The notes under the pieces are model-generated. The model made no database searches, was not told the DNA's origin, and saw only the letters and a program-made list of their open reading frames with translations. Below, in pieces: positions 6,109-59,642 of a stretch of 64,000 bases of DNA; position 1 is the stretch's first letter, and every line of letters begins with the position of its first letter. This DNA comes from Gemmatimonadota bacterium (GTDB lineage: Bacteria > Gemmatimonadota > Gemmatimonadetes > Longimicrobiales > Gaopeijiaceae): contig JBDHHQ010000027.1 of assembly GCA_039589315.1 (NCBI GenBank), forward strand, positions 1 to 64,000, in the 5' to 3' direction. The position numbers and the translations under genes are program-made.

Positions 6109-6297
6109 GCGGAGGGGGTGGGATTCGAACCCACGTGTCCTTTCGGACGCCGGTTTTCAAGTTCCAACAGGTTTTCTGCGTCTGGTTGCGTGTGGTTGTA
6201 TCTGGCTGCGGGGAAAGGCCGCTTGGCGGTTTGCCACAGTCGGCGTTTTGCGTCTGGTTGCGTCTGTTCGCGGCGGGCGTTGGCAAGACGTTGGCAA
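6109..6297 (-). mobile_element. tRNA-Ser(TGA) 3'-half att-like repeat, copy 1
   Basis: Reverse complement reads TTGCCAACGTCTTGCCAACG...(ACCAGACGCA)n...CTTGAAAACCGGCGTCCGAAAGGACACGTGGGTTCGAATCCCACCCCCTCCGC. No tRNA 5' half upstream. Confidence 0.85.
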
Positions 6298-6390
6298 CGC
6301 TGAGCGGCTCACGTGCCCGGACAAGCAGCGGCGCTTCGAACCCGCACATCGACGGGGTCCTCTAGGGGGCGGTTGGGGCCGGAGTCCCCG

Positions 6391-6746
6391 TCAGTCCGCG
6401 ATCGGTGGCCCCGACTTCAGACGCTCCAGCGCCGCCTCGACCGTCGTGACACGGTCACGCACCGACGGGCTGGCCTGATCCCACAGCTCAAGGAACCGGC
6501 GGTAGTACTCCTCGGCCTTCTCCAGGTTGCCCTCGTCTCCATAGATCTGGCCAAGCCGGATGTACGCGTCGCCGAGGTGGCCCGCGTCAAACCAGATCGA
6601 AGACGACGGCTCCTCCGCGAGATACTCGTAGAACACGCGTGCGGAGTCCGGCTGTTCGAGCGCAGCCCCGCGAGCGCCGTCAACCCCTGTTCGAGGTAGG
6701 CTACCGCTGAGTCGGCCTGCCCTAGAAGGGCGTGGATCTGGGCCAA
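6391..6746 (-). pseudogene. C-terminal fragment of a TPR protein (frameshifted)
   Basis: RLGQIYGDEGNLEKAEEYYRRFLELWDQA resembles the C-terminus of the 48586-50940 protein. The upstream part lies in another frame and there is no N-terminus. Confidence 0.65.
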
Positions 6747-7256
6747 CCTCGTGTAGGCCCATGGTCCGAAGATCGCATCCCGCTCCGGGGGGGGAAGACG
6801 ATCTGAGGCCCTTCAAGTCGAGGGCTACCAAGTATTCTCGGGCCAGGCACTACGCACCCCGGGCCGTGCGTTGAGGCCTTGTCCGCCTTCCTCTGGGAGC
6901 CAATCGGCGGGATCCAGTGACGATGTTAGAGCCCCGTCTTGAGGGTCTTCCCCACAGACAGCGTCGGTTAACTCCCCACAGCGAAGCGACTCGCACACCA
7001 GGCACTTTTCACCATCCCCCCCACCTCGGCAGCCTACCCCCTGGCCCAGCCGAGGATCTTCTGCGTGAACAGTAGGGCACGCCTCGGATTCTATCTCGGG
7101 CTGCCCCCAGAATACTCACCGCTCGGGGTGACTGCTGTCGGCAGTAGACAGCGATGCGGCATGGCCTTCAGCCGCCACTCAGCCTCCGGTCATGGTGACG
7201 GAGTTCGCTTGGGACGCGGTGGCCGGCCAGATGAGCGCAGCTTCGGATAGGACCCT

Positions 7257-8087
7257 ATGGCTGACGTTACCGAGCCTTCCTTCGTCGGTGATTGGCGGAT
7301 CTCTGTCACGAGCAAGAACGCGGGCTGGAGTCAGCGCGTCGTCGTGACGAACACCGAAGCTGGCACGCTGACCCTGAGCGGGGTTCCAGGGGCCTCGCTG
7401 GGCGTGTACCGCAGCGGCCAGACGCAATGGAAGCTGAGAACTGAGCACAACGACGGATCGAGCGGGTGGGAGCCCAGCTGGCTTCAACCGGCCTCATCCA
7501 TCGCCGGTACCCGGTACGAGGTGGGCGTGGCGTCGGAGGACATCACCACCGACCGCAGCGATCGCGACTTCGACGACTTGGTGATTCGCCTGCAGAACCT
7601 GGGTGTGACCGCACAGCCGGTTCCTCCCTTCGCCGTCCGGCCACAGACCCTTCAGGCGATGCCGGAGGGCATCTTCGAGGCCTCCTTCGGTGGGTACTTC
7701 ATGGCCGTGCGGGCGACCAACACGTGGACTCAGACCTGGCCGCCCACGGCGAGCGTCGGACTCACCGACCGCTGCCGCGCCTGGCTGGCAGCCGCCGGGG
7801 TCCAGGTGATCGATCAGTGGCCGGCAAAGGATCAGGACGCTCTGCGCCAGAAGGTCGTGGCTGGCCGGGTCGTGGTCGGAGCTATGCCGGCCTGGGACTC
7901 ACGGCTCATCTACTTCAAGGTCGATGTAGCGAACGCCGCGGTTCGCTGGTCAGTCCAAGCATGCGGTCGTGGCACACCCTCGTCGAGGTTCAAACCACAG
8001 GAGAGTTGCAATGAACCTTCTCCGTGTCCTTCTTGCCCTGCTCATGCTCTCTTGCGGCTCCTGGGCATGCACTCCCGAAGACCTTGA
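7257..8087 (+). CDS. Hypothetical protein, probably 3'-truncated near 7950
   Basis: Coding-like to about YFKVDVANAA, with a DRDFDDLVI Ca-binding-like motif. The tail overlaps the next gene. Confidence 0.5.
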   Translation: MADVTEPSFVGDWRISVTSKNAGWSQRVVVTNTEAGTLTLSGVPGASLGVYRSGQTQWKLRTEHNDGSSGWEPSWLQPASSIAGTRYEVGVASEDITTDRSDRDFDDLVIRLQNLGVTAQPVPPFAVRPQTLQAMPEGIFEASFGGYFMAVRATNTWTQTWPPTASVGLTDRCRAWLAAAGVQVIDQWPAKDQDALRQKVVAGRVVVGAMPAWDSRLIYFKVDVANAAVRWSVQACGRGTPSSRFKPQESCNEPSPCPSCPAHALLRLLGMHSRRP

Positions 8088-8694: not shown

Positions 8695-9175
8695 TCGCGC
8701 CCCCTCGCACCCGGTTCTCCCCGTATGCGCGAGGAGCGAGTCACCGGCCCTCCGAGACGGGGGGCCTCCCGTACCCCTCCGGGACACCCTTTGTAGGTTA
8801 GGCTCCCGGAATCACCGCTGTTTCGCCTCGCACACGGGGAACGAAGCCTGCGGGGTCGCTCTGCCGGTCGTCGGCTCCCTCGAACCCGGGGGGGCCTCCC
8901 GTACCCCTCCGGGACACGCCTCGTGAGCCAAGCCCCCGGAATTACCGCTGTTTCGCCTCGCACACGGGGAAGCAGGGGCGTGAAGGCGCTCCTGGGGGAG
9001 GACTCCCTCGAACCACGCGGCGAGCTACCCACCCGTCCCAGACCGCTAGTTCCGCTAGTTCCACCGCCAGTTTCGCTCGCCTCCACCGGTGTCTTCACCT
9101 GTGTTTTCACCCCTGTCTTCCTTGATCCGCACCTCGCGCATACGGGGAGGGAGCGGTGCAAGGGCGCTTGGAGGG
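8695..9175. repeat. Complex repeat, left end (inverted counterpart at 25590-26180)
   Basis: Internal ~130 bp-period tandem (GGGGGCCTCCCGTACCCCTCCGGGACAC; CCGGAAT.ACCGCTGTTTCGCCTCGCACACGGGGAA, both twice). 9012-9175 is the inverted match of 25590-25753. Confidence 0.8.
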
Positions 9176-9978: not shown

Positions 9979-10254
9979 GACGGCGTTGACGAGCGTCAAC
10001 GCCGAAAGAGAGACGCCAACCCCCCCGAACGGAGCCGCCTTTGCCTTTAGCGCCCCCGATCTCTCTGCACAGTAGATTGGCAAGAACACGGAGGGTCCAG
10101 AGAAAGGGCGGCAATGACCCAGAAGACCGAGTCGAAGAACGATCTGGGAGCCGTTCGCGGTGTGCTGGAAAAGTGTGCAAGTTTGGGGGTCGTAGACCCC
10201 ACGAGCGGAGTATGCGCGGAGGAAGGTCCTCTCGGAGTCGGTTCGAAACAGTCC

Positions 10255-10588
10255 GCCGCTACGAGCAGGCCTCGACCGTGCTCACGTCGAACAAGGGCTT
10301 CGAAGACTGGGGCCAGGTCCTGGGCGATGACGTCATGGCCGCCGCGCTGATCGACCGGCTGGTCCACCACTGCCATATCTTCAATATCCGCAGCAACAGC
10401 TTCCGGATGCGCCATCACACCGAGCTGTCGAAGGCCCTACTCGCCGAGCTCGAGGCCGAGAAACCCTCTCCCAGCCGTAGGAGAAGAAGAACAAAGGAGG
10501 CTACGACGAACCGAGGCTCGTCCCCTCAACGGCTGAGGTGGGACAGTTTCAGCCGCCACAAGTAGGACATTTTCAACCGGCGTTGACA
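10255..10588 (+). mobile_element. istB: IS21-family remnant: IstB C-terminus and right terminal repeat
   Basis: RYEQASTVLTSNKGFEDWGQVLGDDVMAAALIDRLVHHCHI. Ends ...GGACAGTTTCAGCCG...GGACATTTTCAACCGGCGTTGACA. Confidence 0.85.
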
Positions 10589-13881: not shown

Positions 13882-13893
13882 GGCGGCCGTCCG

Positions 13894-15411: not shown

Positions 15412-17730
15412 ATGAACGTCAACAAGCTGTTCCCTCGCCTCACAATCCGGCTGAAGCTGACGATCGCGTTCGCGCTCCTGTCGATGGTCCCCTTGCTCGC
15501 CGTCGCAGGGCTTGCCACCCGGGTCACGCTGCGAAATGTCCGGACTCTTACCGAGAGCACGCTCCGTCATGACCTGGACATGGCACGCGCACGGACCGAG
15601 CGCGCGCTCCAGGAAGTCGAGCAGGACCTGGCATTCGTCGCGGGCACCGTCTTGGGCCCGCGTTTGATGCAGGACAGCGAGACCGGGGCTGAGCCACTGG
15701 AGAGCGTAGCTACGGACTTCCTCGCCCTGAGTCCGACCCTCTTCAGGCTCCTGGCGGTGCGGGCCGACGGCGAGATCATCTTCGCAACCTCGTCCGATCT
15801 GGTGGACTCACTGCCGCGTGAGAGTTCGGGCGCTCGGGCCGCGTTCCTCTACTCCTATCTGGCCGCGTCGATCGAGCCGGGGAAGCGGATGGCGATTCCG
15901 GTCGAACTGAGAAGCGGGACCGACGAGGCCGGCCCGTTCGTCACGACCCCTGCCATCGCGGTCCTGGAACCCATCCGCAACGAGGGTGGCGAGCTCTTGG
16001 GCGTGATCGTCGGTGAAGCATACGCGTCGCGGCTCTTCGCAGGCGTGGACCAGGGGTCCCCGTCTCTCCTGGCCACGACGGGCGTGGTCGCCGGCAACGG
16101 CCTCCTTCTCCACCACTCCGAGCGTAAGCAGGACTGGACCAGCCTCCTCGCCTCCCGTTCGGACGCGAACCTCGAAGACGACCTTTCGGCCTCCGGAGCG
16201 GCAGCGGTTCTATCCGGTGAGGCCGGGACGCTCAGAATCCCGGATGACAGGGTCGTCAGCTACGTCCCCCTTCGCCTCGCCGGTAGCGGTATCGGACCGC
16301 TGACGCTCTACCGGGTCGTGCGCGCGTCGGCTCTCGGGGCATCGGTGCGGCGCCTCCGGACGGTAGCGCTCGGGGGAGGGGCCGTGTTGTTCTTGATGGT
16401 GCTGGGCCTCGCGATGCTGGCGGCCCGTCAGTTCACGGGTCCGATCTACACACTGCGGCAAGGCGTCCGCCGCCTCGCCAGCGGGGAGTCCGATGTCGGC
16501 GTCGACGTGGAAACGAACGACGAGCTGGAGGACTTGGCGCACGATTTCTCGGCGATGGCCGTCCTACTCTCCGATCACCGCAATCGTCTCGAGGAGCTGG
16601 TGGAGGAACGCACCCGGGCGCTGCAGGAGGCCCACTCCAAGCTGGCGGATATCCTGGAGTACTCCGCCGACGCGATCGTCGGGCTCGACCTCGAAGGACG
16701 GGTCCGCCTGTGGAACAGGGGGGCCGAGTCTCTCTTCGGATACTCGGTGCCCGAGGCAACCGGGCAACGTGTGGATGGTCTCCTTACGCCCGAAAGCGCG
16801 GACAGCGCCGTCGAGCGGGCCGTGATCCAGCGCGAGATGAAGCGACACGGAGCCGTCGTGAACCTCCAGACTCACCGGACACCAAAGGACGGGCCCGCCT
16901 TTCCGGTCAGCCTGACGCAGGCGCCGATTCGGGACTCGGACGGGAACCCGGTCGGCTACTCGCTCATCATTCGCGACACGCGCACGCAGGCGAGGCTCGA
17001 GGAGCAAATGCGGCGTTCGGAGAGGTTGGCCACTGTGAGCGTGATGGCCGCCGGACTAGCGCACGAGCTCAAGAATCCACTGGCCATCATCGGCAACCGG
17101 GTGGAGTGGATGCTCAGGGAATCCAACGAAAGCTGTCACGAATGCGGCCTGGGCCAAGATCTAGAGGTGGTGAGCGAGCACACGAGCCGCCTGGTCGACC
17201 TCACGCGTGACCTCCTGTCCTTTGGCCGAGAAGCGGACGACGCCCGTGGGCCTGTGCTCCTCAGCGACGTGTGCAGCCGTGTGGCCGGACTCCTGGATCG
17301 AACGTTCGCGGCACGGCAGTTGACGTTGGAGACCGACCTTGCCTCAGATCTTCAGGTGCTGGAGGGCAGCGAGCCCGAGATCGAGACCATCTGCATGAAC
17401 CTCCTCATGAACGCCGCCGATGCCACACCGTCGGGTGGGACCGTCACTATGGAGGTCCGCCGTTCCCAGTTCGGCGACTCGCTGGAACTGGAGGTGCGGG
17501 ACACCGGACCGGGCGTCCCGGTCGAGCTCCGTCGTCGCATCTTCGAACCCTTCTTCACGACCAAAGGCAAGCTCGGCGGCACCGGACTCGGGCTCCCATT
17601 GTGCCGGAGCATCGCCGAGAGACACGGAGGCACGATCGCAATGGAGAGCGGCGAGGGGTACGGGAGTCGGTTCGTAGTTTCGTTCCCCCTTCCCGCGATG
17701 GCCGACGAATGGAACGGGCAAGGATACTGA
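15412..17730 (+). CDS. Sensor histidine kinase (periplasmic sensor-HAMP-PAS-HisKA-HATPase)
   Basis: Two TM segments, DELEDLAHDF HAMP, PAS (WNRGAESLFGY), AHELKNPL, NAADA, DTGPG, FFTTK, GTGLGL. Confidence 0.92.
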   Translation: MNVNKLFPRLTIRLKLTIAFALLSMVPLLAVAGLATRVTLRNVRTLTESTLRHDLDMARARTERALQEVEQDLAFVAGTVLGPRLMQDSETGAEPLESVATDFLALSPTLFRLLAVRADGEIIFATSSDLVDSLPRESSGARAAFLYSYLAASIEPGKRMAIPVELRSGTDEAGPFVTTPAIAVLEPIRNEGGELLGVIVGEAYASRLFAGVDQGSPSLLATTGVVAGNGLLLHHSERKQDWTSLLASRSDANLEDDLSASGAAAVLSGEAGTLRIPDDRVVSYVPLRLAGSGIGPLTLYRVVRASALGASVRRLRTVALGGGAVLFLMVLGLAMLAARQFTGPIYTLRQGVRRLASGESDVGVDVETNDELEDLAHDFSAMAVLLSDHRNRLEELVEERTRALQEAHSKLADILEYSADAIVGLDLEGRVRLWNRGAESLFGYSVPEATGQRVDGLLTPESADSAVERAVIQREMKRHGAVVNLQTHRTPKDGPAFPVSLTQAPIRDSDGNPVGYSLIIRDTRTQARLEEQMRRSERLATVSVMAAGLAHELKNPLAIIGNRVEWMLRESNESCHECGLGQDLEVVSEHTSRLVDLTRDLLSFGREADDARGPVLLSDVCSRVAGLLDRTFAARQLTLETDLASDLQVLEGSEPEIETICMNLLMNAADATPSGGTVTMEVRRSQFGDSLELEVRDTGPGVPVELRRRIFEPFFTTKGKLGGTGLGLPLCRSIAERHGGTIAMESGEGYGSRFVVSFPLPAMADEWNGQGY

Positions 17731-19100
17731 TCGTCGACGACGAGCCGGCGATGCTCGTGAACTGCGAGAGGTTCCTCTCGCGGGAGGGGTACGACTGCGT
17801 CACGCTGCGGGATCCGACCCGGGTGCGCGCCGTACTGGACGAGGTGCGGCCCGACGTACTTCTCTTGGACCTCCGGATGCCGGGGGTCGACGGAATGACC
17901 GTCCTCACGGTCGCGTTGGCGGACGATCCCGCGCTCCCCGTCGTCATCATGACCGCACACGCCTCGGTAAACTCGGCGGTGGAAGCCATCCGCGAGGGCG
18001 CCTTCGACTACCTGGAGAAGCCTTTCTCCGCGGATCAGTTGGTCGTGTCTGTGAATCGCGCGGTTCGGCACCGGGGTCTCGCTGTCGAGAATCGCACCCT
18101 TCGGGAACAGGTGGACCGAGGCCTTTCGAACACGATCATCGGTTCGAGCAAGGCAATCACGCAGTTGCTCCACATGGCCCTCAAGGTCGCCGCTGCGGAC
18201 TCCAACGTCCTGATTTCCGGGGAGAGCGGCACGGGCAAGGAGTTGATCGCGCGCTGCATCCACGCCAACAGCTCGAGGAAGGACCGACCGTTCACGCCCG
18301 TGGACTGTGCGGCAATGCCCGAGGGGCTGCTCGAGAGCGAACTCTTTGGTTACGAGCCCGGTGCCTTTACCGGCGCGGTCCGCCGAAGGCGAGGGCTCCT
18401 CGATGAAGCCGCGGGCGGGACCGTGTTCCTCGACGAGTTCACCGAGTTAAGCGCGGCCCTCCAGTCCAAGCTCCTGCGCGTGCTGGAGGAGCGGAAGGTC
18501 AGGAGGCTGGGAGGCTCCGCACTGATCGACATCGACATTCGGGTGTTGGCTGCCACCAACGTGGACCTCGATGAGGCGGTCGCGCTCGGATCGTTCCGCG
18601 AAGATCTTTATTACCGACTCAACGTCGTGCCGCTCCACCTTCCTCCGCTGCGGGAGCGCGAGGGAGACGTTATTCTGCTCGCCCAACAGTTTCTGGCACG
18701 CTACTCCGCCGCCCAGGAGTGGGATCCGCCGAAGGTGTCTCCGGACGTGTGGGAAGCACTCGAGCGGTACCCATGGCCAGGCAACGTAAGAGAGCTGAAA
18801 AACCTGGCCGAGCGGCTGGTGGTCCTTCACGAGGGCGATAGCATCACCCTCTCCGACCTCCCCGAGGCATTCCGGACAGACTGGGCGACGTTGACACGGG
18901 TGGACGACGGGGAGCTCCTTCCCTATCCGGAGGCCCGGCTGCAGGCACTCCAGGAATTCCGGAAGCGCTATGCGCGCACGCTCCTGGGCCGGTGCGGTGG
19001 GAACGTGTCGCGGGCCGCTCGCACCGCCGGAGTCTCGCGCCGGACCGTCTATCGGTGGCTCGACGAGCTCGAAGCCGAACCTCCTGCCAACCAGACCTGA
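17709..19100 (+). CDS. NtrC-family sigma54-dependent response regulator
   Basis: ILIVDDE receiver, GESGTGKE, GAFTGA, FREDLYYRLNV, WPGNVREL, Fis-type HTH. Confidence 0.95.
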   Translation: MERARILIVDDEPAMLVNCERFLSREGYDCVTLRDPTRVRAVLDEVRPDVLLLDLRMPGVDGMTVLTVALADDPALPVVIMTAHASVNSAVEAIREGAFDYLEKPFSADQLVVSVNRAVRHRGLAVENRTLREQVDRGLSNTIIGSSKAITQLLHMALKVAAADSNVLISGESGTGKELIARCIHANSSRKDRPFTPVDCAAMPEGLLESELFGYEPGAFTGAVRRRRGLLDEAAGGTVFLDEFTELSAALQSKLLRVLEERKVRRLGGSALIDIDIRVLAATNVDLDEAVALGSFREDLYYRLNVVPLHLPPLREREGDVILLAQQFLARYSAAQEWDPPKVSPDVWEALERYPWPGNVRELKNLAERLVVLHEGDSITLSDLPEAFRTDWATLTRVDDGELLPYPEARLQALQEFRKRYARTLLGRCGGNVSRAARTAGVSRRTVYRWLDELEAEPPANQT

Positions 19101-19713: not shown

Positions 19714-21594
19714 ATGAGCTCGCCATCCGTTCGGACCCTGACACTGAGCTTCGTCGCCGCTGCGTTACTCCTCCTCGCCTGTGATGAGGGCGCGGTGACC
19801 CCTCCAGTGGTCTCCCCTCCCGACGACACGCTTCCTCCGCCGATCGTAACACCGGTGACCGCCGCGAGCTGGGTCGACTGGGTGGATTGGGACCAGCGGA
19901 CCGTCGTGGAGGTGAGCATGGTGGAGAGCGGCGCCGCCCTGTCGTACTCGCCTGCCGAGCTCACGTTCGAGGCGGGCAAGCCCTACGTGCTCCGGATCGT
20001 GAATTCCGTCGATAACGACAGCAAACACTACTGGTCCCCCGAGGGGACGAGCTTCTTCAAGGCCATCGCCACTCGAAAAATCCAGACGGCGGAGGCCGAG
20101 TACAAGGCTCCCTACTTCGACGCGGTAGAGCTACAGATCGGGGGTGCCCTGGAGATCTTCTTCGTCCCGGTGCTGGCCGGCACGTACGACATCGTGTGCA
20201 CCATCACCGGCCACAAGGCCGCTGGTATGTTCGGCACGGCCACCATCACTGGTGGAGAAGGCTACCAGCTCGACCTGGAGGTAGCGCCGGACTACAACCC
20301 GGCCCTGAGCAGCGATCCCCGACGCTCTGGATCGCACGACGTCTGGAGCAACGCCGTCGACAAGACGGTGGAGATGTTCGAGTCCGCCGACTTCAGCCAA
20401 TTGGGTTACGAGCCGCCGAACCTCGAACTGACTCAGGGCCTGGGCTACAAGCTCCGCTTGGAGAACGACGAGGGCCACGCGTCGAAGCACTACTACACGG
20501 CGACCGAGTTCTACAAGACCGTCGTGATGCGCAAAGTCGAAGACTCGCAGGCCGAGATCAAGGCGCCCTACCTGAACGCTGTCGAGCTCCTGATCGGAGG
20601 CGAGACGACACTCTTCGTCGTTCCCACGCAGCTGGGCACCTTCGAGACCATATGCACGATCACCGGCCACGTCCAAGCCGGCATGGAGGGCACGATCACC
20701 GTGTCGCCACTCGTCGCTACACCGGTCACGAGCTCGGACTGGGTGTCGTTCGTGGACTGGGATCAGCGGACCGTGGTCGAGGTCACGATGGTCGAGTCGG
20801 CCGGTGGCGCCCTCTCGTACTCGCCGAGCGACCTCACGTTAGAGGCGGGCAAGCCGTACGTGCTGCGCATCATCAATCCCGCCGACAACGACAGCAAGCA
20901 CTACTGGTCCCCGGAGGGTTCCAGCTTTTACCAGGCCATCGCGACGAGGAAGATCGAAACCGCCGACGCTGAGTACAAGGCGCCCTACTTCGATGCGGTC
21001 GAGCTTCTGGTCGGAGGTACGCTCGACATCTACTTCGTGCCGGTGTTGGCAGGCACCTACGACATCATCTGCACGATCACGGGGCATCAGGAAGCCGGGA
21101 TGGTCGGCACAGCGACCATCACGGGGGGAGATGGCTACCAGCTCGATCTCGAGGTAGCCGCCGACTTCGATCCTGCCCTGATGACGGACGCGAGACGATC
21201 TGGGTCGCACGCCGTATGGGCCACCGCCGTTGACGTCACCGTCGATATGTTCGAGTCGGCCGACTTCACTACGCTCGGCTACGTCCCGCCGGACCTCGAC
21301 CTGACCCAGGGCGTAGGCTACAAACTTCGCCTCCAGAACGCCCCTGGCCACCAGTCCAAGCACTACTACACGGCGTCGGAGCTGTACAAGACGCTCGTGC
21401 TCCGAAAGGCCGAGGACTCCCAGGCCGAGATCAAGGCACCGTACCTGAAGGCCGTTGAGCTGCTGATCGGCGGTGCCACTACCCTCTTCAACGTACCCAC
21501 GAAGACTGGGACCTACGAGGTGATCTGCACGATCACTGGCCACGTCGCCAGCGGGATGAAGGGTACCATCTCGGTGGCTGCCGACGGAGGCTAG
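19714..21594 (+). CDS. Lipoprotein with four tandem type-1 copper (cupredoxin) domains
   Basis: AAGGAGGT RBS and lipobox LLAC. Four repeats of KHY...CTITGHxxxGM arranged as (AB)2. Confidence 0.88.
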   Translation: MSSPSVRTLTLSFVAAALLLLACDEGAVTPPVVSPPDDTLPPPIVTPVTAASWVDWVDWDQRTVVEVSMVESGAALSYSPAELTFEAGKPYVLRIVNSVDNDSKHYWSPEGTSFFKAIATRKIQTAEAEYKAPYFDAVELQIGGALEIFFVPVLAGTYDIVCTITGHKAAGMFGTATITGGEGYQLDLEVAPDYNPALSSDPRRSGSHDVWSNAVDKTVEMFESADFSQLGYEPPNLELTQGLGYKLRLENDEGHASKHYYTATEFYKTVVMRKVEDSQAEIKAPYLNAVELLIGGETTLFVVPTQLGTFETICTITGHVQAGMEGTITVSPLVATPVTSSDWVSFVDWDQRTVVEVTMVESAGGALSYSPSDLTLEAGKPYVLRIINPADNDSKHYWSPEGSSFYQAIATRKIETADAEYKAPYFDAVELLVGGTLDIYFVPVLAGTYDIICTITGHQEAGMVGTATITGGDGYQLDLEVAADFDPALMTDARRSGSHAVWATAVDVTVDMFESADFTTLGYVPPDLDLTQGVGYKLRLQNAPGHQSKHYYTASELYKTLVLRKAEDSQAEIKAPYLKAVELLIGGATTLFNVPTKTGTYEVICTITGHVASGMKGTISVAADGG

Positions 21595-21596
21595 TC

Positions 21597-22556
21597 GTGC
21601 CTCAGATCGTCAGGGCGTCAATCTGCGGCATCGCGGCGGTCCTGCTGCCCTCGTCGCCGATGGGGGCCCAGGATCCCGCGCCGGGGGCCCAGGTGTCAGC
21701 CGTAGCCGCCGCGGAGCTCTACGCCGACGCCTGCGCCCCATGTCACGGTCGGCTCGGTGAAGGCAACGGGCGCGGTGCGGCACGTCTGGGATCGCCCGAG
21801 CCGCGGGATTTCACAGTCGGTGTCTTCAAGTTTCGGACGACGCCGACGGGATCGCTTCCCACGGATGCGGACATCTTTCGGACGATTGCGCGAGGGGTGC
21901 CCGGCACCTGGATGCCCGCCTGGAAAGATCTGCTCAGCGAAGACGAGACGTGGGCGATTGTCCACTATATCAAGGGATTCTCGGAGTTCTTCGCCATCGA
22001 GGATCCAGATCCTCCCGTCCCGCTTCCCACCCCACTGGAGGTTACCCCGGAGCTGCTTTCCGAGGGTCGGCTCGTCTACACCGTACTTGGATGCGCCCGA
22101 TGCCACGGGACCAGCGGCCGGGGAGACGGCCCCTCGGCCGCCGAGCTCACGGACGACTGGGACCGCGAGATCGTTCCCTACGACTTCACGCGTGGTGGCT
22201 ACAAGAACGGGTCCACGCCATCGGACATCTACAGGACGCTGGTGACGGGCCTCGACGGCACGCCCATGCCGGCCTTCGAACCAGACGCGGTTGTCTTTCC
22301 CGGAGATCCCGAGGGCGACGTCACCTCGCTGAGCACTGGGCTCGACGCCAGGACGGCAGAGGAGCTCGAAGCCTACCTGCGCCATCAGCCGACGGCCGAG
22401 CAGATCTCGGCCATGGACTCCGACGAGCGCGAACGTCTCGCGCAGCATCGACTGTGGGCACTTGTGTTCTACCTCGATGCCCTCCAGCGGCCACGTCGTT
22501 GGTGGTACCGGCTCCTCGTTGAGCAACCCGAACTGACCAGGGAGAAGGGGCGATGA
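21597..22556 (+). CDS. Diheme cytochrome c
   Basis: CAPCH and CARCH, each followed by a P.DFT motif and an MP axial-ligand motif. Confidence 0.88.
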   Translation: MPQIVRASICGIAAVLLPSSPMGAQDPAPGAQVSAVAAAELYADACAPCHGRLGEGNGRGAARLGSPEPRDFTVGVFKFRTTPTGSLPTDADIFRTIARGVPGTWMPAWKDLLSEDETWAIVHYIKGFSEFFAIEDPDPPVPLPTPLEVTPELLSEGRLVYTVLGCARCHGTSGRGDGPSAAELTDDWDREIVPYDFTRGGYKNGSTPSDIYRTLVTGLDGTPMPAFEPDAVVFPGDPEGDVTSLSTGLDARTAEELEAYLRHQPTAEQISAMDSDERERLAQHRLWALVFYLDALQRPRRWWYRLLVEQPELTREKGR

Positions 22557-22996
22557 AGGGCCTTTGTTCTTCCGCGGCTGTGACGCTCTTGGCGCTCGGA
22601 TCTTCGTGGGGTTGTGCCGGGGACGGGACCGGCCTCGACGAGTTCGGCAACCCGATCACCGGCTCCCTGGCTGCGCTCGGCCCGACGCTGTCCGGTGTGC
22701 AGGACAACATCTTCACTCCGATCTGCACTCAATGCCACACGGGAGCCTCGGCGCCCCTGGGTCTGGCACTCGACGAAGGCGTGGCACGCGCGAACCTGGT
22801 CGGAGTGGAGAGCACGGAGACGCCCGGCTTACTACGGGTCGATCCGGGCAGTCCCGACTCCAGCTACATCATCTGGAAGGTCGAGGGTCGGCCCGACATC
22901 GTTGGGGGTCGAATGCCCCTGGGGATGGCACCGCTTTCGATCGAGCAACTGGACGCGCTGCGGGGTTGGATCGCCGCCGGCGCGGGGGCGAACTAG
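22553..22996 (+). CDS. Monoheme cytochrome c lipoprotein
   Basis: Lipobox-like WGC, IFTPICTQCH, RMP, 'WIAAGA' end. ATGA overlap with the upstream gene. Confidence 0.82.
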   Translation: MKGLCSSAAVTLLALGSSWGCAGDGTGLDEFGNPITGSLAALGPTLSGVQDNIFTPICTQCHTGASAPLGLALDEGVARANLVGVESTETPGLLRVDPGSPDSSYIIWKVEGRPDIVGGRMPLGMAPLSIEQLDALRGWIAAGAGAN

Positions 22997-23008
22997 GAGG
23001 CAGATGAA

Positions 23009-24115
23009 ATGCACGCGAGACGAAGCGGTCTTTGCGCCTTGGGGGTGCTCGGAGCACTCGTCGCGGGCTCCACACCAGTTGCCGCCTACGGGCCGGAGGA
23101 CGGGGCCAGCCGGGAGCCCTACCTGTCTGTCAGGACCGGCCTGCACTGCTCCCAGTGCCACACCAACCGAACCGGTGGTGGCGGACGTAACCAGTTCGGC
23201 AGCGTCTACGCGCAGGCGTTCCTGCCGTGGCAGAAGCGCTCCTTCCAAGGTCGCTCGCTGAACAGCTTCATCTCTGTCGGAGGCAATCTCCGATTGGCGG
23301 CGTCCGGAACGGTCTCCGGATCCACGCCGCGAACATCCCTCGCGGTCACCGAGGCCAACATCCAGGTGGAGGCACGCCTGGTTCCCGACGCGTTAGCGGT
23401 CTACGTAGACCAGACCATCGGGCCTGGCAGCGCCGCCTCGCGGGAGATCTTCGGCCTTCTCGAAGGCCTGCCGCTGGACGGATACGTGAAGGCGGGGAAG
23501 TTCCTCCTCCCGTTTGGCGTGAGACTGCTGGACGACCAGGAGTTCATAAGGGAACGAACGGGGTTCAGCTACAAGACGCCGGATACGGGCTGGGAGGTGG
23601 GCATCGAACCCGGGCCGCTCTCCTTCTTCCTCGCCGTGACCAACGGGACCCAGGGCGGCGACGAGAACAACAGCGGCAAGCAGGTTACCGCCACGGGCGC
23701 GTTGATCTTCCGCCACTGGAGGCTTGGCGCTTCGGCGTCGCGCAACGATGCGCCGGACGCGCGCCGGGACGTCCTGGGTGGCTTTGGAGGGCTGAATCTG
23801 GGTCGCCTGACCTTTCTCGGTGAGCTGGACGTCATCGTGGACTCGCCCGAGGACGGGAACGAGCTCGAACAGTTGGCGGCCTATGTCGAAGCGAACTTCC
23901 TGGCCGCCCCGGGTCTGAACGCCAAGGTCACGTACGGATTCCTGGACCCGAGCGCGGACATCGGTGAGAACGCACGGACCCGGATGAGATTCGGTCTCGA
24001 GTGGTTCCCGATTCCCTTCCTGCAGCTGTCGAGCTTCTACACGGTGCTGGAGGACATCCCCCAATCCACCACCGACCTCGATCAGCTGAGTCTCGAGCTC
24101 CATGCCTACTTCTGA
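23009..24115 (+). CDS. Outer-membrane beta-barrel with N-terminal c-type heme motif
   Basis: EPYLSVRTGLHCSQCHTNRTGGGGRN, beta-strand pattern, C-terminal LELHAYF. Confidence 0.78.
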   Translation: MHARRSGLCALGVLGALVAGSTPVAAYGPEDGASREPYLSVRTGLHCSQCHTNRTGGGGRNQFGSVYAQAFLPWQKRSFQGRSLNSFISVGGNLRLAASGTVSGSTPRTSLAVTEANIQVEARLVPDALAVYVDQTIGPGSAASREIFGLLEGLPLDGYVKAGKFLLPFGVRLLDDQEFIRERTGFSYKTPDTGWEVGIEPGPLSFFLAVTNGTQGGDENNSGKQVTATGALIFRHWRLGASASRNDAPDARRDVLGGFGGLNLGRLTFLGELDVIVDSPEDGNELEQLAAYVEANFLAAPGLNAKVTYGFLDPSADIGENARTRMRFGLEWFPIPFLQLSSFYTVLEDIPQSTTDLDQLSLELHAYF

Positions 24116-24249
24116 CGCTGTGTCCGCCGAACGCCCGTTGCGGCGATTTCGGGTGTGCGGAGGTCGTTCGCCATCGGTGATGTCGACCATATCGAGCTCT
24201 GGCCGCCAGCCGTGAACCACACGCGACACCTGACCCTGGAGGTTGTCTC

Positions 24250-25014
24250 ATGTCCGCCAAGAAATCGGCTCGAAGACGGATCCTACCGGTGACGCTGATG
24301 GCTCCGGTGCTCGCAGGAACTCTTCTGGACGTCGAGTCAAACCATGCACGGCCTTCCGTGGGAGACATCCGCGGAGCCGTGAGCCTCAGCGGCACGGTTA
24401 CGTACGTCGGTCCCGCGCCTGAGGCTGAGGTTCTTCCCATGGATTCCGACCCCTACTGCGGCGAGGTACACTTCGGCACGACGTCTGAACGAATGCCGTT
24501 CAACGTCGATCTGAACGGCGGTCTCCGTGACGTAGTCGTCTACATCCGTGAAGGGGCTCAAGAGAGCGAGTATCCGGTCCCGGAAGAGGACGTGCTCCTG
24601 GACCAGGAGGGTTGTCTCTACGAGCCCCACGTGGTCGCCTTGCGTAACGGGCAGACGCTCACGATCCGAAATAGCGACGGCACCTCGCACAACGTGCACG
24701 TCAGCGCAAGGAAGAACCGAGGATTCAACATCGGCCAGCCAATCAAGGGCATCCAATCCCGGAGATCGTTCCGTCTGGCTGAGCTGCCGATCCACGTGAC
24801 CTGCGATATCCATGGATGGATGCACAGCATCATCGCGGTCTTCGATCACCCCTTCTTCGCCGTCACTCGTGACAACGGGACCTTCCGTCTGGACCACCTT
24901 CCCCCGGGGGACTACGTCGTGGAGGCGTGGCATGAGGTGCTGGGAAGCCAGACGCGACAGGTGACCGTGAACGAGGGAGCTGCCACGGAGGTTACCTTTG
25001 TCTTCGAGAATTGA
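24250..25014 (+). CDS. Cupredoxin-like/carboxypeptidase-regulatory-like protein
   Basis: LDQEGCLYEPHV, NSDGTSHNVH, CDIHGWM, HPFFAVT. Confidence 0.82.
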   Translation: MSAKKSARRRILPVTLMAPVLAGTLLDVESNHARPSVGDIRGAVSLSGTVTYVGPAPEAEVLPMDSDPYCGEVHFGTTSERMPFNVDLNGGLRDVVVYIREGAQESEYPVPEEDVLLDQEGCLYEPHVVALRNGQTLTIRNSDGTSHNVHVSARKNRGFNIGQPIKGIQSRRSFRLAELPIHVTCDIHGWMHSIIAVFDHPFFAVTRDNGTFRLDHLPPGDYVVEAWHEVLGSQTRQVTVNEGAATEVTFVFEN

Positions 25015-29799: not shown

Positions 29800-29890
29800 T
29801 ACCGCTGAGTACCGCTCGGTACACAGCCAGAAAAGGTCTTGAAAACCGGCGTCCTAAAGGACACGTGGGTTCGAATCCCACTCCCTCCGC
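29800..29890 (+). mobile_element. tRNA-Ser(TGA) 3'-half att-like repeat, copy 2 (different upstream arm)
   Basis: GGTCTTGAAAACCGGCGTCCTAAAGGACACGTGGGTTCGAATCCCACTCCCTCCGC, preceded by TACCGCT x2. Confidence 0.85.
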
Positions 29891-37185: not shown

Positions 37186-37284
37186 GGCACGTACCGGAGC
37201 TTCGTCCTACCGCCGAGATGCCCGTCTGCTGGGGGGGCACGCCTTTCACTCACATCCCGAGGTGTGCGCAAGCGAACGAGCTCG

Positions 37285-37471
37285 CGCAGCCAGATACAAC
37301 CAGACGCAGCCACACGCAGAAGACCTGGCGGAACTTGAAAACCGGCGTCCGAAGGGACACGTGGGTCCGAGCCGAGCGGCCGATGTGGTGTGCGCGATGC
37401 GGCCGGTCCGCTGGCCCGCGAGACCACTGAGGATCGCCGCAGGCGACCGCAGGTGAATCCCACCCCCTCCG
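37285..37471 (+). mobile_element. tRNA-Ser 3'-half repeat, copy 3, with 86-nt T-loop insertion (37371-37456)
   Basis: CAGATACAACCAGACGCA arm, then CTTGAAAACCGG...GTGGGTCCGA[insert]ATCCCACCCCCTCCG. Confidence 0.85.
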
Positions 37472-37679
37472 TTTAGGGATCACGGCAACGCTGGTTGGCC
37501 AAAGCAACGTCGATGAGTCCGAACCCACGGCGCGATCTGCGGAGCAGATCGCGGAGTTGGTGAGCCGAGCGGCCGAAACGGTGGGCCGCGGGGCGGACCG
37601 AAGGCGGCGGTCCGCGAGACGAGCGAGGACGGCGTGAAGCTCCCCCGGCTCGCTTACGTCCCGCCGCCCAGGGTGCAGC

Positions 37680-37805: not shown

Positions 37806-37934
37806 GCACTCGGGATGCCCGCCCTGGGGCGTGAAGCAAGGTGGGCAGCCCCAGGGTCGCCAACCCGCAGAGCGAATGCGCCAGGACCGTGGCAAGCGTC
37901 CCGGACCGACTCCACGGTGTGGTCCGGGCCGGAC

Positions 37935-38531
37935 TCACTGGCTCATGACGCAAGCCGGAGCGACCGGCTCCCGGACCCACCGGACCGTGTCCTGGGGGAC
38001 CCATGCCCCGTCCTCCCACACCTTGGCCACGGTCACCAGCGTGTCTCCCCGGCTCAGATCGGTGAGATCGCGGGAGCGCCCGGCGGTGCCATCGGGAAGG
38101 GACGCCGTGAACTCGACCAGGCGCGTGTCTTCACCCGGGGCGGTGAGCGTCCCTTCGGCCACCACCCCGATCCCCGCGAAGACCGTGACCCGGACGCCTC
38201 CGTTCTTCGGATCCGGGTGGAACACGATGTGGCTGAGGGCCTCGCAACGTCCGTCGGCGTAGACCGAAAGGGCGTCCGACGTGACCACGTTGCGTGCCGG
38301 TCCCCAGCGTGAGATCCGCGCCCAGTGGAACGGTTCCTCCTCGGCGCCCGGGCCCCACTCCGGATTATCGCGCCGCCACACGCCGGAACCGTTGACCTCG
38401 TGCTTCAAGAGCGCCGCAACGGGGCTCGCCTGCTGATCTGCATGCTGCGCGCCCACAGGGGCGAGCACGGCCCCCACAAGTGCGGTACTCACCAGTCCCG
38501 CCTTCCACCATCCGCCTCGACTCATCTCCAC
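37935..38531 (-). CDS. Hypothetical secreted protein (paralog of 39244-39839)
   Basis: Signal peptide ..VLAPVGAQ. Diverged duplicate downstream. Confidence 0.7.
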   Translation of the reverse strand: MEMSRGGWWKAGLVSTALVGAVLAPVGAQHADQQASPVAALLKHEVNGSGVWRRDNPEWGPGAEEEPFHWARISRWGPARNVVTSDALSVYADGRCEALSHIVFHPDPKNGGVRVTVFAGIGVVAEGTLTAPGEDTRLVEFTASLPDGTAGRSRDLTDLSRGDTLVTVAKVWEDGAWVPQDTVRWVREPVAPACVMSQ

Positions 38532-38626
38532 CCCACACGTGAAAGGAAAATTTCAGAGGTGAGAAACCATGGCAAGATCGGCCGCCGGAGGCAAGGCAGG
38601 GAGGGGGGCGGATTGCCGGACTTGAA

Positions 38627-38723
38627 CGTCGAAGGGTCCGGATACGGTGGTCTCCCCAGGCCGCGGTCTCGTACCATCACCGAACGCGCCGGTGCTGTAC
38701 CCGTTGAGCCGAAGCATCTCGGC
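38627..38723 (-). pseudogene. Arylsulfatase internal fragment (second copy at about 39935-40033)
   Basis: AEMLRLNGYSTGAFG...ETTVSGPFD. Confidence 0.6.
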
Positions 38724-38765
38724 CCAAGGGCCTACCCGTGATCGAGTTCCGCGCAATCCTGCCCC

Positions 38766-39040
38766 TTGCCAACGTTTTGCCAACGCCACCCGCGAACAGA
38801 CGCAGTCAGACGCAAGACGCCGACTCTGGAAGACGGCTTAATCGCCTTTCCCCGCAGCCAGATACAACCAGACGCAACCAGACGCAGAAAACCTGTGGGA
38901 ACTTGAAAACCGGCGGGCTAACGCCCACGTGGGTTCGAGCCGAGCGGCCGAGATGGTGGTCCGCGATGCGGCCGGTCCGCTGGCCCGCGAGACCACTGAG
39001 GATCGCCGCAGGCGACCGCAGGTGAATCCCACCCCCTCCG
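38766..39040 (+). mobile_element. tRNA-Ser 3'-half repeat, copy 4 (full arm), 87-nt insertion at 38939-39025
   Basis: TTGCCAACGTTTTGCCAACG, CAGACGCA repeats, CTTGAAAACCGGCGGGCTAACGCCCACGTGGGTTCGA[insert]ATCCCACCCCCTCCG. Confidence 0.9.
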
Positions 39041-39243
39041 TTAGAATGGACTGCGCAGTTAAGGCGGCTGGCCTGCCACGGGGCGAACCTCGCCGCCGCC
39101 TCCCCGCGCCTCCCGACGCCGACTGCCGGTCCTGGGCGTGAACCAAGGTGGGCAGCCCCAAGGTCCCCAACCCGCAGAGCGAATGGACCAGGACCGTGGC
39201 AAGCGTCCCGGACCCCACTCTACGGTGTCGGTCCGGGCCGGAC

Positions 39244-39839
39244 TCAATGGCTCATGACGCAAGCCGGAGCGACCGGCTCCCGGACCCAACGGACCGTGTC
39301 CTGGGGGACCCATGCCCCGTGCTCCCACACCTTGGCCACGTCACCAGCGTGTCCCCCTGACTCACATGGGTGAGATCGCGGGAGCGCCGAGTCGTGCCGT
39401 CGGGAAGGGACGCTGTGAACTCGACGAGGCGCGTGTCGTCACCCGGGGCGGTGAGCGTCCCTTCGGCCACGACCCCGATTCCCGCGAACACCGTAACCCG
39501 GACACCTCCGTTCTTCGGATCCAGGTGGAACACGATGTGGCTGAGGGCCTGGCAACGTCCGTCGGCGTAGACCGAAAGGGCGTCCGAGGTAATCACTTTG
39601 CGTGCCGGTCCCCAGCGTGAGATCCGCACCCAATGGGACGGCTCGTCCTCCGCGCCGGGGGTCCACTCCGGGTTATCGCGCCGCCACACGCCGGAACCGC
39701 TGACTTCGTGCTCGAGAAGCGCCGCAACAGGGCTCGCCTGTTGGTCCGCATGCTGCGCGCCCACAGGGGCGAGCGCGGCCCCCACGAGTGCGGCACTCAC
39801 CAGTCCCGCCTTCCACCATCCGCCTCGCCTCATCTCCAC
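39244..39839 (-). pseudogene. Paralog of 37935-38531 with a 1-nt deletion near 39340
   Basis: GGCCACGTCACC here versus GGCCACGGTCACC in the intact copy. Confidence 0.7.
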
Positions 39840-40075
39840 CCCGTGTGTGAAAGGAAAATTTCAGACGTGTAAAACCATGGGGAGATCGGGCGCCGGAGGC
39901 AAGGCCGGGACGGGGGCAGATTGCCGGACCTGGACGTTGAAGGGCCCGGATACGCTGGTCTTCCCAGGCCGCGGTCTCGTACCAACCTACCGAACGCGCC
40001 GGTGCTGTACCCGTTGAGCCGAAGCATCTCGGCCCAAGGGCCTACTCGTGACCGAGTTCGGCGCCATCCTGTCCT

Positions 40076-40360
40076 TTGCCAACGTTTCGCCAACGCCACC
40101 CGAGAACAGACGCAACCAGACGCAACCAGACGCAAAGCCCTAGCCGCGACCAGCGCCGAAGACCCCCTGCACCGCAGCCAGATCGAACCACACGCAACCA
40201 GACGCAGAAGACCTGACGGACCTTGAAAGCCGGCGGGCTAACGCTCACGTGGGTTCGAGCCGAGCGGCCGATGTGGTGGTCCGCGATGCGGCCGGTCCGC
40301 TGGCCCGCGAGACCACTGAGGATCGCCGCAGGCGACCGCAGGTGAATCCCACCCCCTCCG
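40076..40360 (+). mobile_element. tRNA-Ser 3'-half repeat, copy 5, 87-nt insertion at 40259-40345
   Basis: Same architecture as copy 4. Followed by TGTTACC x2 (40423-40441) and the integrase 3' end. Confidence 0.9.
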
Positions 40361-40444
40361 TTGTGTGGTAAAACCACTTACGCATCTACGGCCACACCCT
40401 CCTCTCGCTCGGTCGCAGCGGGTGTTACCCGTTCTGTTACCGGC

Positions 40445-47510: not shown

Positions 47511-47540
47511 TTGACCTATGACGGGGGGCGTGCTATCCAT
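47511..47540 (+). promoter_or_regulatory. Candidate sigma70 promoter for higBA (possibly leaderless)
   Basis: TTGACC-N17-TATCCA, 5 nt before the ATG. Confidence 0.45.
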
Positions 47541-47544
47541 TTCC

Positions 47545-47829
47545 ATGGAGATCAAGGGCCGTGGGACCCGGGACATCTATGAAGGCGCCGACACGAAGAC
47601 GGCACGCAAGACGCTGCCTCGGGAGCTATGGAGCAACGCTCGTCGCAAGCTGGACCGGTTGTACCACGCTAAGAGCCTGAACGATCTCCGGTGGCCCGGC
47701 GGGAAGCTGGAGGCCTTGAAAGGAGAACGGAAGGGGCAGCATTCGATCAGGATCAACGACCAATACCGGATCTGTTTCGTGTGGACGCGTGAAGGAGCGA
47801 AGGAGGTCGAAATGACGGACTACCACTAA
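47545..47829 (+). CDS. higB: HigB-family toxin
   Basis: ARRKL, LEALKGERKGQHSIRINDQYRICF..DYH. Confidence 0.92.
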   Translation: MEIKGRGTRDIYEGADTKTARKTLPRELWSNARRKLDRLYHAKSLNDLRWPGGKLEALKGERKGQHSIRINDQYRICFVWTREGAKEVEMTDYH

Positions 47830-47888
47830 TCGAACGGGACATGGAGGAACACACCTAGGGACCCCAACCTAGGACAAGGGAGCAAGCG

Positions 47889-48209
47889 ATGAAGACGACC
47901 GAAGCCGGTCTACCCCAGCACCGTCCACCCACTCATCCGGGTGAGATGCTACTCGAGGAGTTCTTGAAGCCAGCAGGAATCAGCCAGTCCGAGCTCGCGC
48001 GAGAGATCGGAGTGTCGTTCCAGCGGGTAAACGCGCTATGCAACCAGCGTCGCGAGATGACGCCCGACACGGCGCTTCGTTTGGCGAAGGTGTTCGGCAC
48101 GTCGCCGGAGTTCTGGATGGGCCTACAGGCGAGCTGGGACCTATGGCACGCGATGCGCGCACCGGAAGCGAAGGACCATGAACGAATTAGGCAGCTACGG
48201 CCAGCCTGA
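47889..48209 (+). CDS. higA: HigA-family antitoxin
   Basis: PTHPGEMLLEEFL, TPDTALRLAKVFGTSPEFWMGLQ. Confidence 0.93.
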   Translation: MKTTEAGLPQHRPPTHPGEMLLEEFLKPAGISQSELAREIGVSFQRVNALCNQRREMTPDTALRLAKVFGTSPEFWMGLQASWDLWHAMRAPEAKDHERIRQLRPA

Positions 48210-48254: not shown

Positions 48255-48366
48255 TTGCCAACGTTTTGCCAACGCTCCGTGAGAACAGACGCAACCAGAC
48301 GCAATAAGCCTGAGGGAACTTGAAACCGGCGGGCGCAAGCCCACGTGGGTTCGAGCCGAGCGGCCG
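48255..48366 (+). mobile_element. tRNA-Ser 3'-half repeat, copy 6 (shortened arm; breaks off 12 nt into the T-loop insertion)
   Basis: TTGCCAACGTTTTGCCAACG..CAGACGCA x2..CTTGAAACCGGCGGGCGCAAGCCCACGTGGGTTCGAGCCGAGCGGCCG. Confidence 0.85.
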
Positions 48367-53167: not shown

Positions 53168-53245
53168 CGGATCACTCCTTCGAGGGGATGGGCGCTAGGG
53201 CAAGTCAGAGCGGACTCAGGTGGTGTAGCCGATCCGGTGCCCGGA

Positions 53246-53331
53246 AGCCAGATACAACCAAACGCAACCAAACGCAGAAGACCTGTGGAAACTCCAAGAC
53301 CGGCGTCCGAAAGCCGACGGTACCCACCCCG
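53246..53331 (+). mobile_element. tRNA-Ser 3'-half repeat, copy 7 (degenerate)
   Basis: AGCCAGATACAACCAAACGCAACCAAACGCAGAAGACCTGTGGAAACTCCAAGACCGGCGTCCGAAAG...CCCACCCC. Confidence 0.75.
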
Positions 53332-58056: not shown

Positions 58057-58070
58057 GTATCAGAGACTCT

Positions 58071-59270
58071 CTACGTGACCTGGAACAGGGCTGCGATACC
58101 GATGTCACCGGCGGCACACCCGAAGATGAGCACATAGCCGCCGCCCAGATCGACGGCTTCTTCCAGGGCCTCGATGAGGCTCCGGGTGAGGGTCGGGCCC
58201 TGCGGGTGACCCCACACCAGCGAGCAGCCGGTGTTGTTCATCTTCCGCCAGTCATATCCGGTCTGCTTGGCGAACACGACGTCGTTCACGGCGAAGGGAT
58301 TGTGGTTCTTCACCACCGCGACGTCGTCCAAAGACATGCCCAGACGGCTCATCAGCTTTTTCACGGCGAGGCCGGGCGCCTCGGGCATGAAGCTCGGCTC
58401 CGCGCGTGTCTCGGCTTTGCCCACGAAGCGGATGTCGATCTCGGGCCGGGGGCTGAGCTCCCTCGCCTTCTCGGCGGTGGTCACCAGCAGCGTCGCCATG
58501 CCGTCCGAGGCATGGGTCTGGGTACCGCTGGTGACGCAGGTGTCGAGCTCGCGTTGGGCGGCGAGGGACGCTCGGCTGATCTGCCGCACGCCCTTGTCTT
58601 CGTCGATGCGGCCCAGAGGCCGGCCCTGCACGTTGAGGATGTCCAGCGGGACCACCACTCGGTCCAGGAATCCCGAGTCCTTGGCCTCGAAGTACTGCTG
58701 GTACCGGAGGTAAGCCACGTCGTCGGTCTCCGTGCGATCGGCCCCGAACTTCCGGGCGGTCATGCCAGCCGCGGTGATCATCGCCCTACCGGTGGCCGGG
58801 TCGAAGCCGAAGTTGTCCCACACGTCGGCGATGGCCTGGGTGCGCTCGTGGGCACGGCGCTCCGGAAAGACGCCCACCGGCGAGTCGCTGGTCCGATCGA
58901 AAGTGAGCACCCCCACCACGTCGTTGGCGCCGGAGTGGACCTCCGCACCGGCCACCAGCGTGGCCTGGAGTCCCGTAGCGCACGCCTGCTCGACGTGGAA
59001 TCCCGGGATCCGGTGCCCCATGCAGCTCGCCACGAGCGGCGCCGTCCAGAACTTCCAGTGCCACGGGATCGTGGAGCCCAGGACGAGGTACTCCAACTCG
59101 CTCAGGGGGACCGACCGAAGGCCCATGATTCGGGCCATGGACTCACCGGCGAACTGACCGATGTTCACTTCGGCCAGCACCGAAGTCTGCCAGGCTGGGA
59201 AGTAGCTGGTTCCCCACGTCCCGTACGGGATGCGGGCATCGGGGAAGAGGCTACGGTCGCGCGTGTTCAT
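58071..59270 (-). CDS. Thiolase-family protein
   Basis: EQACATG, SDGMA, NHNPFA, GHPQG, GCAAG. Confidence 0.85.
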   Translation of the reverse strand: MNTRDRSLFPDARIPYGTWGTSYFPAWQTSVLAEVNIGQFAGESMARIMGLRSVPLSELEYLVLGSTIPWHWKFWTAPLVASCMGHRIPGFHVEQACATGLQATLVAGAEVHSGANDVVGVLTFDRTSDSPVGVFPERRAHERTQAIADVWDNFGFDPATGRAMITAAGMTARKFGADRTETDDVAYLRYQQYFEAKDSGFLDRVVVPLDILNVQGRPLGRIDEDKGVRQISRASLAAQRELDTCVTSGTQTHASDGMATLLVTTAEKARELSPRPEIDIRFVGKAETRAEPSFMPEAPGLAVKKLMSRLGMSLDDVAVVKNHNPFAVNDVVFAKQTGYDWRKMNNTGCSLVWGHPQGPTLTRSLIEALEEAVDLGGGYVLIFGCAAGDIGIAALFQVT

Positions 59271-59564
59271 ACGTGGAGAGGCTCTCTCGCTCGTGGAACC
59301 CGGGGGCGGGAAACGCGCCGCGACGGGAGGATGAATGAAAGCTATCTCAGGCGTAGCGGCCAGCAAGACCCGTGGGCGTCCACCGAGTACGCGCAGGGGC
59401 GGCTGGAGCCCGGCGTCTGGGAGCTCGTCCATGCGGCCCCCTGTCTTCGAACCTTGAGGCAGCCCTGCTGGCTCAGACGTCGGGTCCGATTACTGGTCGC
59501 GCACACAGAATCGTGAGAGGTTGGGCCGATTCGAGCATCGCGGCAGAATGAAGAACCGCAGAAC

Positions 59565-59642
59565 CGCGACCAGACGCAGAAGACCTGAGGGAACTTGAAA
59601 GCCGGCGTCCGAAAGGTCACGTGGGTTCGAATCCCACCCCCT
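59565..59642 (+). mobile_element. tRNA-Ser 3'-half repeat, copy 8
   Basis: ACCAGACGCAGAAGACCTGAGGGAACTTGAAAGCCGGCGTCCGAAAGGTCACGTGGGTTCGAATCCCACCCCCT. Confidence 0.85.

Follow-up and report, generated by a model that had tools for sequence, protein, structure and literature searches.

The window analysed here, the first 64,000 nucleotides of contig JBDHHQ010000027.1 (C27) of a Gemmatimonadota bacterium (GCA_039589315.1), is divided into blocks of cargo genes by eight 3′ halves of tRNA-Ser(TGA) (Table 1). The source genome (G000) is a metagenome-type assembly of 6.67 Mb in 288 contigs that is 95% complete. All eight halves described in the initial annotation are present, with starts in the anticodon loop at 6161 (minus strand), 29838, 37334, 38902, 40222, 48319, 53292 (a degenerate copy), and 59594; the first two positions are refined relative to that annotation. 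Seven copies share the same direction and the copy at 6161 is inverted. Core to core, the plus-strand copies are spaced by 7496, 1568, 1320, 8097, 4973, and 6302 bp, and the 14-nt core occurs six times in the window at ≤1 mismatch versus zero times in each of 30 triplet shuffles. The anticodon loop, at which every half begins, is a known crossover subsite, in agreement with the Islander criterion. Within the window, ARAGORN detects zero tRNAs and an Rfam scan returns no matches at E values up to 0.1.

Seven of the eight halves follow an arm of CAGACGCA-type repeats, which is absent from the copy at 29838. Four arms keep an upstream TGCCAACG doublet (6278–6297, 38766–38785, 40076–40095, and 48255–48274) and three have lost it, and these motif positions bear out the counts of the initial annotation. 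In pairwise comparison of the seven full copies of the genome, identity is 96% for the doublet, 94% for the first repeat cluster, and 97% for the second, as compared to 61% for the spacer, which is of near-fixed length, and 35% for the 5′ flank. As judged from the sequences, this combination of kept motifs and diverged spacers matches that of a protein-binding array. Between halves, the variable arms show paired differences (GTCC/GGAC versus GGGC/GCCC), and the host version present in genome G041 is not among them; the halves would therefore stem from several donor hosts. The arm-less half at 29838 is probably the scar of a different integrase. The intervening cargo, described as unrelated in the initial annotation, is not entirely so, in that two neighboring small blocks share 88.5% identity over 1159 bp.

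An arm profile gives 14 hits across the genome, corresponding to 13 sites, and zero hits on the reversed genome. These sites are found on C27, C1, C93, C142, and C184 only (5 of 288 contigs), and seven of the eight on C27 are co-oriented. The tRNA-Ser(TGA) of the genome, which the initial annotation had advised locating along with any adjacent integrase, is on C1, 3 kb ahead of one co-oriented arm copy at the contig end; there is no tyrosine recombinase hit on C1. As assembled (C1:164791–164868), this tRNA is without most of its variable arm, which is present in a near-identical G041 contig, and the shortening is probably due to assembly collapse. The gene 5′ of the tRNA, judged by eye, is an HNH-like frame that follows nqr–apbE genes. 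The sulfatase unit behind the inverted window copy (3407–6048) is a paralogue (69–78% identity, including the upstream region) of the first unit behind the C1 tRNA (L018:10046–11444). Beyond the window, at C27:67820–67952 (L022:3820–3952), the tRNA half next to a full-length arm is exchanged for unrelated sequence exactly at the crossover; this arm shares 96.8% identity with the one that follows the tRNA in G041's version of the C1 end, and it possibly marks an integration at a secondary site. On C93, a second accretion system (17378–19100, L021) lies 11 kb upstream of the Ser-type arm copy; it comprises a tRNA-Ile 3′ half, a doublet-and-repeat arm of its own, and an integrase with a frameshift. 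Titled records that bear the same arm are mostly from Gemmatimonadota.

The integrase family that fits this arm is represented by L169 (genome G502, a relative), a complete 15.7-kb satellite-like element at tRNA-Ser(TGA). At its left end, behind the tRNA, TGCCAACG is present at +120 and +132 and is followed by an intact 398-aa tyrosine integrase (PF00589). Cargo, a DUF3987 protein (PF13148), and an excisionase-type protein (PF12728) come next, and the element closes with TGCCAACG at −136 and −125 and a displaced 3′ half. We know of no helper phage for L169. The window doublets align with the right-hand doublet of L169 and are equally far from the crossover. Because the right end of L169 has the same arm at the same distance, the window arm is identified, at the level of sequence, as the right-hand attachment arm of the L169-type tyrosine-integrase family. 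This assignment upholds the reading of the repeats as an integrase attachment arm and of the copies as scars left by repeated integration in the anticodon loop. Of 401 genomes of the class, 21 have members of this family, frequently with similar doublets and tRNAs nearby. None was found in G000, G001, G041, G263, G557, G149, G185, or G196, where the best matches are ≤35% identical and the assemblies are incomplete.

The integrase gene in the window belongs elsewhere. It is a fragment that is 56–61% identical to the integrases of G010 and L099, which carry a TGT(C/T)ACCC arm equal to the motif at 40423–40442, and its only match to the L169 integrase spans 36 aa at 33% identity. The initial annotation noted one broken integrase in one block: the single truncated gene is there, and its difference in family and arm motif rules it out as the enzyme that mobilizes the TGCCAACG arm. 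An IS3-type remnant at the 5′ break of this gene, suggested by a motif, was not supported by Pfam, NCBIfam, or a genome search. A Pfam scan of 55 window proteins detected no relaxase, conjugation gene, or intact integrase.

In relatives, the same type of arm bounds units that consist of ends plus cargo. An arm model, built from sequence alone on 24 arms, matches 12 of 150 genomes of the bacterium's own family and 18 of 151 of another family, with arms that adjoin 3′ halves of tRNA-Ser(TGA), Ser(CGA), Cys(GCA), and Trp(CCA). Arrays of five to six arm hits are present in G263, G557, and G149, each without an L169-family integrase. In a hand-picked set of fetched loci, 17 core-to-core units were delimited: one (L169) has an integrase inside and 16 do not. 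Eleven of these 16 have same-type sites at both ends (on the left, six have a full doublet as recognized by pattern, and the other five have one or three sites), and five have no left sites. One 3.0-kb unit, both junctions included, occurs in L060 and L074 at 92.9% identity and with different neighbors. These comparisons establish, for the sequences at hand, that units made of ends plus cargo exist and have changed position between lineages. Many units of the other-family arrays (L166, L163, L060, L074, and L084) have one Ser/Thr-kinase gene each, with three such units in a row in L166, and these arrays may feed expansion of this kinase family; C27 shows no such enrichment (1 of 95 genes versus 58 of 5871). 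Profile searches replaced a DNA search of 401 genomes of the phylum that scored two candidates per genome and found four. Two exact-pattern scans of metagenome contigs gave zero hits, and viral contigs gave two matches to the repeat motif, neither with a full arm and tRNA half. Among 30 pattern-matching loci, those in other phyla were coding sequence or unrelated, except for one Vicinamibacteria locus, and were dropped.

The left-hand side of the junctions differs in G000. The left-hand doublet is present in 0 of 14 junction tails, searched within 600 bp or to the contig end. A perfect single left site occurs in one of the 11 tails measured, at +119, versus 13 of 3000 background windows, and the best 9-mer matches are at background level in 10 of the 11. 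Homologues of the thiolase, enoyl-CoA hydratase, and antiporter genes of the 53.4–59.4 kb block are present in the congener G001 at 86–91% identity, the level of other shared genes on that contig. These homologues are without arms, are in another order next to genes from C27 91–106 kb, and have their nearest arm trace, a weak remnant, 10 kb away. Since this cargo is arm-free and permuted in G001, the region appears to be an old one, common to both congeners, that has been reshuffled across its junctions. The permuted order was considered as a sign of a circular intermediate and rejected, as the whole G001 contig is shuffled gene by gene relative to several contigs. The idea of an array mobilized in trans, put forward in the initial annotation, thus finds support in the relatives, with their two-ended integrase-free units and a unit of changed neighbors, and is not supported for the window, in view of the missing left doublets, the lack of a matching integrase in the assembly, and the arm-free, reordered G001 genes.

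The earlier reading missed an additional feature: in four halves, the T-loop contains an inserted element of about 87 bp. It is complete in three (37371–37456, 38939–39025, and 40259–40345) and is represented by its left end only at 48355–48365. Genome-wide, a profile of the element gives 18 hits in or just behind T-loops, across several types of tRNA, and the 3′ end of the tRNA itself is often repeated there; the element has no Rfam match. Unrelated T-loop inserts are present in the arrays of another family. A stable fold was considered and is unsupported by z-scores of −0.3 to −1.4. The tRNA 3′ half also contributes to the next unit's left arm, which such insertions would therefore disturb.

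The window is probably the product of tandem accretion of units that resemble cis-mobilizable elements (CIMEs) at tRNA-Ser(TGA), a stack that is largely fossilized in this genome and is not an integron. In the proposed mechanism, the repeats would be right-hand junctions (element arm, anticodon-loop crossover, and displaced tRNA 3′ half) left by repeated tandem integration, with the doublets predicted to bind integrase and the CAGACGCA repeats excisionase. A visiting satellite-like element would supply both proteins, which would allow non-autonomous units to arrive and integrate, each newcomer pushing older units away from the tRNA. In this genome, left-hand arms would then have been lost or displaced, partly via the small elements that enter the T-loop, after which the blocks could no longer be excised by an L169-type integrase. 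The window would be an older part of the stack, decaying and reshuffled by other recombination. Several observations weigh against this interpretation. C27 is unlinked in the assembly to the contig with tRNA-Ser(TGA), and no contig-end overlap joins C27 or C93 to C1. One arm copy lies on C93, downstream of the tRNA-Ile island, so that the copies may belong to more than one locus. L169 is the one complete element behind the link between integrase and TGCCAACG, and three further family members have similar doublets next to them; the pairing of motifs with proteins follows from position only; and, at 95% completeness, a family integrase could be present and unassembled. Finally, plain decay would not be expected to leave the right arms so well preserved and the left arms absent.

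An alternative is a live integron-like system, in which blocks are still excised and re-stacked in trans by an integrase that needs the right arm only or uses a left arm of unrecognized form. The motif-by-motif conservation of the right arms, the two-ended units of relatives, the 3.0-kb unit that changed neighbors, and the arrays of G263, G557, and G149, none of which has an L169-family integrase, all fit such a system. It is nevertheless unlikely here, since the junction tails have no left doublet and are almost all at background, G000 has no family integrase, and block order appears static. This last result comes from G041, contigs of which are 99.2–99.98% identical to C184, C142, and the C1 end in consistent order and seem to be a second assembly of the array on these contigs; G041 also has another tRNA-Ser(TGA). 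The block order of C184, C142, and the C1 end is the same in G041, with no gain or loss.

The same contigs bear on the suspicion that the window array is an assembly chimera built across repeats, which we regard as very improbable. The assembly is of metagenome type, its contigs break at these repeats, the tRNA on C1 is missing the variable arm that the G041 copy has, the window's cargo is not covered in G041 at the above identity, and the window's own junctions are not seen in a second assembly. In contrast, most copies differ by 7–23%, which is enough to resolve them, G041 reproduces four arm junctions and the tRNA of C184, C142, and C1 at 99.2–99.98% identity, and arrays of the same build are present in other genomes. 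A similarly small probability is given to the alternative raised in the initial annotation, that the arm and tRNA half form a self-spreading, tRNA-derived dispersed repeat that promotes gene shuffling. The inverted copy and the copy beside the tRNA-Ile island on C93 would agree with it, and copies may act as recombination substrates, as in the two 88.5% identical blocks in tandem. The genome-wide mapping that the annotation called for argues otherwise, with sites confined to five contigs and mostly co-oriented on C27; moreover, the same arm ends an integrase-bearing element, and the spacers diverge while the motifs are kept. A dispersed-repeat origin of the arms is thus largely refuted. Beyond the accretion of CIME-like units in this genome, a two-tier, tRNA-anchored cassette system in Gemmatimonadota can be put forward tentatively. 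Units of 1–10 kb made of ends plus cargo could pass from species to species with the help of an integrase and excisionase from visiting phage-satellite-like elements, form arrays at tRNA-Ser, -Cys, and -Trp, and become locked by left-arm loss, helped by a mini-element that targets the T-loop. If true, genes would be collected on an integron-like platform that lacks a resident recombinase and escapes island finders built around an integrase requirement.

Table 1 Junctions, arms, and adjoining features in the 64,000-nt window.
Feature	Coordinates	Strand	Comparison
Inverted copy, a full attR-type junction opposite in direction to the other copies: TGCCAACG doublet, CAGACGCA repeats of 10-bp period in two clusters, crossover, and intact 3′ half of tRNA-Ser(TGA)	6110..6297	-	92.9% identity over 340 bp to C93 copy
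Arm-less tRNA-Ser 3′ half (29838–29889), preceded by another repeat pair, TACCGCT, at 29800 and 29810	29800..29889	+	
Truncated arm (core-proximal repeats only) and 3′ half with T-loop insertion 37371–37456	37285..37471	+	
T-loop element, second partial copy, in tail of 37334 junction	37561..37633	+	
Cargo block, 198-aa gene (37935–38531) without Pfam or NCBIfam family	37816..38765	-	Paralogous to following block
Full arm and 3′ half with T-loop insertion 38939–39025	38766..39040	+	
Second version of the preceding cargo block, 195-aa gene 39252–39839	39124..40075	-	88.5% identical to 37816..38765
Full arm with one extra repeat and 3′ half with T-loop insertion 40259–40345	40076..40360	+	
Left-hand arm of second integrase family, TGTTACC pair at 40423 and 40435	40361..40442	+	Same motif adjoins related integrases in G010 and L099
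Tyrosine integrase fragment, second family, without about 125 N-terminal residues	40421..41182	-	PF00589, E 2.7e-16
Arm with internal deletion (doublet fused to single repeat cluster); 3′ half stops at left end of T-loop element	48255..48365	+	
Core-proximal repeats and degenerate 3′ half	53240..53319	+	
Short arm remnant and 3′ half, acceptor end damaged	59565..59642	+	
Lone TTGCCAACG site, 119 bp past 59594 core; only left-arm trace seen	59712..59720	+	Left doublet of complete element at +120

Several other features of the window lie at or between the junctions. Isolated gene tails (TPR, FtsX-like permease, and PD40) are present at or near junctions (6391–6636, 36974–37249, 37654–37809, and 33552–34332), which suggests deletions or recombination among large paralogue families. 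HigB-like and helix-turn-helix genes, a toxin–antitoxin pair (47518–48209), lie immediately 5′ of the 48255 arm. A stretch of low GC content (27000–30000, 57–58% versus about 65%) contains an OmpA-like frame that immediately precedes the arm-less 29838 copy. Behind a two-component system, a copper/cytochrome cluster (19714–25014) contains multicopper/cupredoxin, di-heme cytochrome c, and unassigned genes; it lies between repeated stretches (8699–9167 and 25588–26180), near an IstB fragment (10041–10565), and may represent a composite unit of the IS21 type.

Tandem accretion is already known, as are islands without an integrase, and no description of such arrays in Gemmatimonadota was found in a literature search of a collection with few subscription papers. 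Here, an arm is linked, across a phylum that has received little study, to an integrase family that fits it and to non-autonomous units with two ends. The window itself is the more modest result, a mostly fixed, decaying stack. The arrays point to a class of islands skipped by integrase-requiring tools, and mobilization in trans is directly testable with one cloned integrase and excisionase.

CIMEs are units without integration and transfer genes that are stacked by site-specific integration of newcomers and keep attL and attR (PMC5704250). The window units likewise have no integration or transfer genes, as judged from the Pfam scan and from a family profile that detects no member in the genome. 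They differ in that units of this genome keep the right arm only, whereas those of relatives keep both, and in that the helper resembles a phage satellite rather than an integrative and conjugative or integrative and mobilizable element and is not present in the array. At the ssrA gene of Dehalococcoides, many target-gene fragments lie within about 100 kb downstream of one RNA gene, with older parts fixed in the chromosome; 15 islands have no integration module and 16 keep it, and a serine recombinase acts at the 3′ end of the transfer-messenger RNA gene (PMC3146451). The many target-gene fragments, the module-free units, and probably the fixation of older parts are shared features. In contrast, the present system has a tyrosine integrase, a crossover in the tRNA anticodon loop, and a conserved arm of 135 bp, and no unit in this genome has a module. 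Tycheposons of Prochlorococcus carry their own integrase, and newcomers push older elements inward, leaving partial tRNAs and broken integrases (bioRxiv 10.1101/2020.12.28.424599). Accretion with such remains is common to both, whereas most units here consist of ends and cargo with no backbone remnant detected.

Islander, which requires one integrase per island, lists four tandems of three or more among 3919 islands (PMC4383910). The anticodon-centered crossover and displaced 3′ fragment are those of its tDNA islands; the requirement for an own integrase fails here, where the single integrase is truncated and of another family, such that these arrays would be filtered out. The search model for PICMI satellites comprises four genes, including a PF00589 integrase, a PF12728 regulator, and a DUF3987 putative primase, with integration at fis (PMC10803314). 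L169 has three of the four model genes (PF00589, PF12728/AlpA, and DUF3987) and differs in its size of 15.7 kb and in its position in tRNA-Ser(TGA) rather than fis. Unlike an integron, the array has no resident integrase by its insertion site, given the absence of a tyrosine recombinase hit on C1, and its boundaries are direct tRNA halves with an arm.

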